Source: an uncultured Chlamydiales bacterium
Lineage (GTDB): Bacteria > Chlamydiota > Chlamydiia > Chlamydiales > JAAKFR01
Direction of reading: 5' to 3'
NCBI GenBank assembly: GCA_963699155.1
Contig: OY969414.1
Coordinates: 1,611,757 to 1,675,756 of the forward strand
Length of the DNA: 64,000 bases
The translations under genes and the position numbers were made by a program. Below are positions 8,039 to 8,595 of this stretch, piece after piece (within the stretch, counting starts at the first letter, position 1; each line of letters starts with the position of its first letter). Under the pieces are notes generated by a model. The model saw only the letters and a program-made list of their open reading frames with translations. It had not been told where the DNA came from and did not search any database.

Positions 8039-8595
8039 TCATTTACTCAACACCCCATAATGCTTCAATAGCTTAATCGTCAACCCTGACATTCCACCAA
8101 AGTTTTCGAAGGCAGATCTGATTGTGTCGAATACTTGACCACCTCCTGCGATTGATGCAATTTCATTTCACTTAAAATTTCCCTTTCTTCAGGATATGGG
8201 ATAATTAAGTAGACATTCCTGTCACTTTCTTCTTCCACAGCTTCCACGGTACAATTCTCAGATAAAGTCAATTGGGTCTCTTGGGTGAGAATTTTCTTAG
8301 GATCTTCCTTGAAACGTTTCCGAAATTGAGGATCCACAGCTATTTTTTGAAATAAGGTTGCCAGAGGACTCTCCCATTTTTTCGACTGCTCAGCCAATTT
8401 TTTAGCTTTGTTTTCAGATGGGATCACGAAATAGTATTTTTGTGGGGATTCTTCCAGAATGGTCACTGTAGTTTCTGCTGGATAAGTCATACCACATTCT
8501 TGTTCAAGTATTTTTTTAGGATTCTTTTTAAGTTCTTCCTTTAATTTCGGGTTCTTAGAAACGCGTTTAATAAATTCTAAAAAATTATTTTCCAT
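8039..8595 (-). pseudogene. NHLP-leader RiPP precursor-like gene with two tandem leader domains; single-base frameshift near 8166-8168
   Basis: Two repeats of the NHLP pattern (K.NPK..L..ECG..YP....V.ILEES...YYFVIP and DPQFR..F.EDPK..L....V..VEE....YLIIP). The -1 frame continues LSENEIASIAGG plus a 33-aa core to a stop at 8039. Confidence 0.75.

Follow-up and report, generated by a model that had tools for sequence, protein, structure and literature searches.

A predicted exported-peptide precursor with a doubled nitrile-hydratase-like leader, and with its double-glycine site in the -1 frame, in a chlamydia-like bacterium

The reading frame found on the reverse strand at 8595..8039 of the 64,000-nucleotide stretch of DNA analysed here (the window) poses a question of gene identity. 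As assembled, its product is a carrier with neither a cut site nor a cargo; is it the greater part of a peptide precursor whose end lies in another frame, and, if so, what would become of the peptide? The combined results lead us to regard the gene, with considerable confidence, as a double-glycine-type exported-peptide precursor of the nitrile-hydratase-like leader (NHLP) family, whose core would stay unmodified and would be cut and exported in trans.

The gene begins at an ATG (8595-8593) with a Shine-Dalgarno-like AAGAGG 6 nt 5' of it (8602..8607, minus strand), and comparable purine-rich boxes lie upstream of the remaining 16 precursors of this genome. A weak promoter-like site, TAGTCA-17-AATAAT (8636..8664, minus strand; 9/12 matches), carries no weight on its own, since two such sites occur in the region against 2.9 expected from shuffled sequence, and a comparison of the upstream regions of the precursors yielded no common motif beyond generic AT-rich, TATAAT-like words. 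Frame 0 runs for 171 codons to a TGA at 8082-8080 and encodes two NHLP domains in tandem, at residues 8-70 (8386..8574, minus strand) and 81-139 (8179..8355, minus strand), which a scan of the whole genome places at 1620142-1620330 and 1619914-1620114, respectively. The family profile TIGR03793 matched the whole ORF in two stretches (77.5 bits, E 5e-22), above its cut-off of 50.9 bits, in agreement with the original prediction of a tandem leader; when the halves were scored separately, as had been proposed with it, residues 1-76 gave 50.5 bits and residues 77-143 gave 34.6 bits, both as NHLP domains. The profile of the nitrile hydratase alpha subunit, PF02979, also passes its threshold on this ORF (32.4 bits, cut-off 27.2); the equivalog model of the enzyme itself, TIGR01323, stays at 31.3 bits, far short of its cut-off of 249.85.

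The gene is one of a large set of paralogs. Six-frame scanning of the genome (2,399,326 bp in one contig, 100% complete) identified 17 ORFs that together account for 30 NHLP domain matches at E<0.01; 13 of the ORFs (this gene counted) contain two modules and four a single one; nearly all have an in-frame (A/S/T)GG followed by 22-55 residues. The precursor genes are dispersed singly among housekeeping genes, with no small or immunity-like gene found to be common to their loci. From the 16 other paralogs, 14 cores were parsed: these are 22-55 aa long, hold two Cys in total, are poor in Ser/Thr and carry a net charge of 0 to +3, and several resemble membrane spans (mean hydropathy 2.0-2.4 over 18 residues). 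One double-leader paralog (L012:9729-10298, minus strand) has INSK in place of I(A/S)GG and, judged by its sequence, may no longer be cleavable, and two paralogs have degenerate Gly-Gly sites. An 18th precursor is represented by a remnant (L021:10523-10669, genome about 1701422-1701568) made up of ...AELAQVSGG and a 38-aa Gly-rich hydrophobic core; its leader part is lost, and it begins exactly at the end of a copy of an insertion sequence. This IS3-like element (HTH_21 plus rve integrase core) occurs in about 15 genomic copies of at least 99.7% identity, two of them in the window (8867-10186, reaching to about 10361, and 57050-58544), and the same IS lies 272 bp upstream of the precursor gene studied here; by a rough estimate, three copies within 2 kb of an NHLP precursor compare with some 0.4 expected. 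At a separate locus, a single-leader precursor is flanked by genes for a NEL-type E3 ligase with leucine-rich repeats and a UCH-type deubiquitinase-like protein (L015:7271-9730, plus strand, and L015:15131-18454, minus strand), classes of protein typical of host-manipulating symbionts.

What frame 0 lacks is found in the -1 frame. There, beginning with AAT 8167-8165, a leader end reading NEIASIAGG (8141..8167, minus strand) provides the double-glycine cleavage motif, and is followed by a 33-aa core, GQVFDTIRSAFENFGGMSGLTIKLLKHYGVLSK (8042..8140, minus strand), and a TGA at 8041-8039, a reading in which the original prediction proved exact. When aligned with the 12 intact double-leader paralogs, this -1 piece falls on the xxELxxI(A/S)GG column, straight after the frame-0 ...EILSE, whereas the frame-0 tail, MKLHQSQEVVKYSTQSDLPSKTLVECQG (8080..8166, minus strand), falls off the leader-end column. 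The same distinction was drawn by an HMM built from 115 double-leader homologues, all from other sources, which scored the N part alone at 121.8 bits, the ORF as assembled at 123.8 and a read-through with X at the break at 143.3: a gain of 21.5 bits for the -1 piece and of 2.0 for the frame-0 tail. The tail also had no family match in scans of the whole ORF, and is unlikely to be the genuine end of the coding sequence. The openness of the 42 codons in the -1 frame means little by itself, since 27% of random 42-codon windows in the genome are open, and codon-usage scores did not separate the three frames over so short a tail. The motif and the core are nevertheless present and homologous, although, as assembled, in the -1 frame only. 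The core is free of Cys, bears a net charge of +2 and ranks among the most amphipathic when set against the paralog cores, so that its earlier description as Cys-free and amphipathic-looking is borne out by computation; comparison with all other cores and the rest of the genome revealed no similarity. In practical terms, annotation pipelines would predict the truncated protein and overlook the peptide, a modest point for a single gene.

The sequence L-S-E-x-E-I-x-x-I-A-G-G is unbroken only if a three-base codon is supplied, which places the gap, a single missing base, in the codon flanked by GAA 8169-8167 and GAA 8164-8162 (8165..8168, minus strand). A missing A in the AAA run (8168-8166) had been proposed; the one-base gap stands, although on the sequence the lost base need not be an A of that run. 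As to its cause, an error of assembly is slightly favoured over a very recent inactivation. The single-copy rpoB is split into two ORFs and rpoC into at least five, and gyrA (two shifts), gyrB and tgt are all frameshifted, within 10 kb, relative to a congeneric genome (G002), two of the breaks lying at G6 and A6G5 runs. These genes occupy genome positions 1237715-1245680 (L016:416-8381; rpoB and rpoC) and 1730386-1740556 (gyrA, gyrB and tgt), and because such breaks hit essential genes, the nominally complete assembly must carry clustered indel errors. Contigs built from four public runs cover only 7600-7881 and 8822-9000 of this region, with none over 7882-8821; of seven candidate public runs the best reached a word share of 0.22, and no run was recorded as RNA.

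The competing interpretation, that the frameshift is real and marks a young pseudogene of a family eroding in this genome, is given slightly less than an even chance. Some of its arguments come from the family itself, in which the 18th precursor has been reduced to a C-terminal remnant fused to the IS also found near this gene, one paralog has exchanged its Gly-Gly for INSK and two others have degenerate sites. The break is, moreover, at a run of three bases, a poor substrate for homopolymer error; in a comparison with ORFs from 1.2 Mb of the congener, 474 of 484 orthologues showed no frame change (the 10 that did include gyrA, gyrB and tgt); and the certain assembly errors lie in highly conserved genes, unlike the precursor gene. 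Set against this are the demonstrable indels in essential genes and the condition of the gene itself, in which everything else is preserved, from the ribosome-binding site and the two domains to a perfect motif and the open 42-codon frame. The sequence behind the break is undamaged under either reading.

Direct orthologues offer no further guide to the frame. A DNA search of 30 relatives found none, a word-index protein search returned only the gene's own product, and a protein atlas gave only weak NHLP-type leads (scores 0.76-0.79). In a library of 1.84 billion representatives the protein forms its own 50% cluster, and since no relative in the protein libraries exceeds 50% identity, the conserved frame cannot be read from an orthologue. 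At the level of leader architecture the results are quite different. TIGR03793 matches occurred in 21 of 150 genomes sampled from the phylum, with one additional genome yielding no score, and two matches in one ORF were present only in this genome and in one from another chlamydial family (G028). Run against the same library, a profile derived from the 12 intact double leaders retrieved 7,320 proteins at E<=0.001 (1,895 at E<=1e-10). Among the best 150 of these 7,320 matches, 146 have two modules, one has three and three have four; 11 of the 150 derive from this genome, leaving 139 foreign clusters with multiple modules. Doubled or quadrupled NHLP leaders are thus widespread, and with 13 of 17 paralogs doubled in this genome as well, the view that a duplicated leader is unusual had to be abandoned. 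Our literature search turned up no account of NHLP leaders in doubled or tandem form, and the available text of a study that treats NHLPs as folded monomers does not contain the word tandem (PMC12537861).

The three four-module proteins (P0012, P0016 and P0018) contain four consecutive NHLP modules, followed by a single Gly-Gly site. Their cores are Arg/Trp-rich or Gly/Tyr-rich; two come from cyanobacterial MAGs (Calothrix and Trichodesmium) and bear the NCBI name 'NHLP leader peptide family RiPP precursor'. We also considered a single ancient duplication as a possible source of double leaders. In a domain tree, first and second modules did not form separate groups (183 of 292 placed at the best split), and module identity was 35% within proteins against 28-32% between proteins, and 27.8% within this genome.

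A structural view of the doubled leader was obtained from an AlphaFold2 model of the 143-residue carrier, computed with 125 homologues in the alignment (pLDDT 90.9, pTM 0.81). The model predicts two helix-helix-helix-hairpin units, and its residues 1-141 superpose on residues from about 41/51 to 170/180 of nitrile hydratase alpha subunits with Z of 9-9.9 and rmsd of 3.1-3.5 Å over 116-122 aligned positions; thiocyanate hydrolase gamma follows at Z 8.7, and the next, unrelated fold at Z 2.3. Because the superposition spans the whole model, it is the two modules together that would reproduce the core of the alpha subunit. The 143 residues contain two isolated Cys and no metal-binding Cys cluster. 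When an intact paralog was modelled, its GG motif came out as a helix and its core with low confidence. To read the doubled leader as an entire alpha-subunit core would provide a simple structural account of the origin of such leaders.

The original prediction had placed the exporters in trans, and two candidate systems are indeed encoded elsewhere in the genome, where the only two C39 peptidase domains both lie in NHLP-type cassettes (cut-offs: TIGR03796, 853.3 bits; TIGR03797, 709.4; TIGR03794, 156.2). System A (genome 568,186-573,394; L013:12587-17795; minus strand) matches TIGR03796 with 903.6 bits and TIGR03797 with 770.8, and its adaptor is short (282 aa; TIGR03794 143.2 bits, under the cut-off); it lies 2.4 kb from a single-leader precursor and 1.05 Mb from the gene studied here. 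System B (genome 2,198,513-2,206,492; L056:6514-14493; plus strand), 0.58 Mb away, comprises a TolC-like protein, an adaptor (TIGR03794, 199 bits), the C39 transporter (TIGR03796, 910.8 bits) and a second ABC subunit (ABC2) of 1000 residues whose TIGR03797 score, 685.6 bits, is just below the cut-off. This ABC2 has a 310-residue N-terminal extension that recurs in four other chlamydial genomes. The idea that the long ABC2 (about 1000 aa) is tied to double leaders was ruled out by its presence in all five NHLP-bearing chlamydial genomes tested, three of which have single-module matches only. About 670 bp upstream of system B, with one thioredoxin-like ORF in between, lies a class D beta-lactamase-like gene (L056:5075-5845, minus strand; NF012161, 202 bits, cut-off 250), and kdpAB adjoins.

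The best indirect support for the handling of double leaders by such exporters comes from G028, where five tandem double-leader precursors lie directly beside a TolC-HlyD-ABC1-ABC2 cassette. In that cluster (L097:38-12589; G028:C46), the TolC-like protein, HlyD, C39-ABC1 and ABC2 are encoded on one strand and the five precursors, with Ser/Gly/Thr-rich cores, on the other; it ends in a gene for a 204-aa protein that appears GNAT-like by inspection and had no family match in an NCBIfam scan. By analogy with this arrangement, and with the co-occurrence of precursors and exporters across the family (PMC2887384, in its available parts), the precursors of the present genome would be paired with systems A and B.

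A search for modifying enzymes gave a very different result. Whole-genome scans for the YcaO, LanC-like and SPASM families, the controls of which matched, returned no match each, and it is to these families that the absence of maturases refers (in a scan for LanB the control itself gave no match). None of the three occurs within about 6-10 kb of any paralog, and no maturase family was found among the 206 neighbouring ORFs of 14 precursor loci. One radical-SAM protein does lie among these neighbours, but contains a UPF0004 domain and is presumably a tRNA/ribosome methylthiotransferase. The genome search proposed with the original prediction therefore recovered the C39 exporters and none of these maturases, and of the alternative it offered, a RiPP or a bacteriocin, the former has become doubtful, while an unmodified bacteriocin-like peptide fits better. 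In the strict sense a RiPP needs an enzyme that modifies its core, and the scans for YcaO, LanC-like and SPASM proteins supplied none; an unmodified, class-II-like exported peptide is hence the most likely product.

That the precursors are nonetheless true RiPPs, with cores modified by an enzyme encoded elsewhere and outside the scanned families, seems to us unlikely. It would accord with the best-known role of NHLP leaders, which is to dock YcaO, LanM, halogenase and radical-SAM enzymes (PMC12537861 and PMC12455567, as far as their available texts go), with the Cys-rich cores of relatives in other chlamydial genomes, and with the GNAT-like gene at the end of the G028 cluster. It must, however, contend with a 100% complete single-contig genome devoid of matches to the three families, with 206 neighbouring ORFs lacking a maturase family, with cores that are almost Cys-free and poor in Ser/Thr, and with the occurrence of NHLP in species without such enzymes, already noted in the accessible part of PMC2887384.

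Returning to the unmodified, exported peptide, we propose the following scheme. The carrier of about 140 residues, composed of two NHLP modules, would imitate the alpha-subunit core of nitrile hydratase while lacking the metal site. Thus folded, the double leader would keep its cargo soluble and offer a helical LSExEIxxIAGG to the C39 domain of system A or system B, each comprising a C39-peptidase ABC transporter (TIGR03796), a second ABC subunit (TIGR03797) and a HlyD-type adaptor (TIGR03794). The leader would be recognised there and cut after Gly-Gly, and the 33-residue amphipathic, cationic core would be exported, most likely leaving the cell unmodified. Seventeen precursors, two dedicated exporters and no maturase together suggest that these symbionts export not one but an entire array of small peptides.

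Chlamydia-like bacteria are not known as makers of peptide bacteriocins, and our literature search found no paper linking NHLP to Chlamydiae or Protochlamydia. An alternative to bacteriocins would be exported membrane-inserting or signalling peptides, with the host vacuole or the producer itself as their target. The membrane-span-like character of several cores, the lack of an immunity gene common to the loci, and a chlamydia-like producer, for which few competitors would be expected and which encodes a TLC ATP/ADP translocase, a CT021-family protein and parts of a type III secretion system nearby, all point in this direction; bacteriocins, on the other hand, use the same exporter family elsewhere (PMC2887384, available portion), and we hold the proposal to be rather improbable. 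A more far-reaching version, to be taken as speculation with little chance of being correct in full, would see in the doubled leader a complete, catalytically dead nitrile hydratase alpha core serving as a soluble carrier of hydrophobic peptides, in single NHLP leaders half of this fold, and in the 17-18 cargoes not ordinary bacteriocins but membrane-active effectors that pass through two type-I-like systems and are directed at the host vacuole or at co-resident symbionts. Finally, programmed -1 ribosomal frameshifting or transcriptional slippage, by which both frames would be joined in expression, would suit a -1 frame whose openness and homology begin at the break itself, but is a negligible prospect given that 8160-8175 has neither an X XXY YYZ slippery heptamer nor a long A run (AAA only) and that the motif is in frame in all 12 intact double-leader paralogs and in 117 of the best 150 homologues.

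The kind of system to which this precursor very probably belongs is already known; what is new is a doubled leader that would fully imitate the alpha subunit, together with so large a family in a chlamydia-like genome. The NHLP family (TIGR03793) was described as having a nitrile hydratase alpha-like leader that ends in ELxxxxAGG, large paralogous families, co-occurrence with a three-gene TIGR03794/03796/03797 export cassette and, in some species, no known maturase (Haft, Basu & Mitchell 2010, PMC2887384, here and below in its available parts). The present family agrees with that description in leader type, leader end, paralogy, export cassette and the want of a known maturase, and differs in that the leader module occurs twice, the genes are scattered, the host is chlamydia-like and one copy is out of frame. 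It is thus of a known kind, in which a doubled carrier domain and a family of this size are uncommon for such a bacterium. The only fused NHLP form described in the same source is the tandem NHLP-Burk pair (TIGR03795) of Delftia and Acidovorax, which likewise unites two nitrile-hydratase-like modules in one polypeptide; in those proteins, however, two complete precursors that function together have been fused, whereas module 1 here lacks a cut site and core of its own, and TIGR03795 gives this gene 13.4 bits. With proteusins and other modified NHLP products (polytheonamide-type precursors), whose structured leaders are treated in the available text of PMC12537861, the product shares a long, folded, protein-like leader, but no epimerase, YcaO or LanM was found here, and the cores lack the residues on which those enzymes act.

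Nitrile hydratase alpha and thiocyanate hydrolase gamma, on whose globular core the modelled double leader superposes and whose sequence profiles match it, represent a further point of reference. Here, unlike in nitrile hydratase alpha, the Cys-x-Leu-Cys-Ser-Cys metal site and a beta-subunit gene are lacking, and a cleavable cargo is carried.

Class II bacteriocins and microcins are unmodified peptides with a short (15-30 aa), unstructured Gly-Gly leader, exported by C39 ABC/HlyD/TolC systems. The present precursors depart from this pattern in their leader, which is about 150 aa long and predicted to be folded (pLDDT 90.9) rather than short, and in having no immunity gene seen in the neighbourhood. 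The C39 ABC transporter and accessory protein are present in the genome, and would be expected to act on the peptide. The features in common are a Gly-Gly site predicted to be cut by the exporter's own peptidase, a core predicted to escape modification, and a set of cores that are small, cationic, Gly/Ala-rich and hydrophobic or amphipathic.
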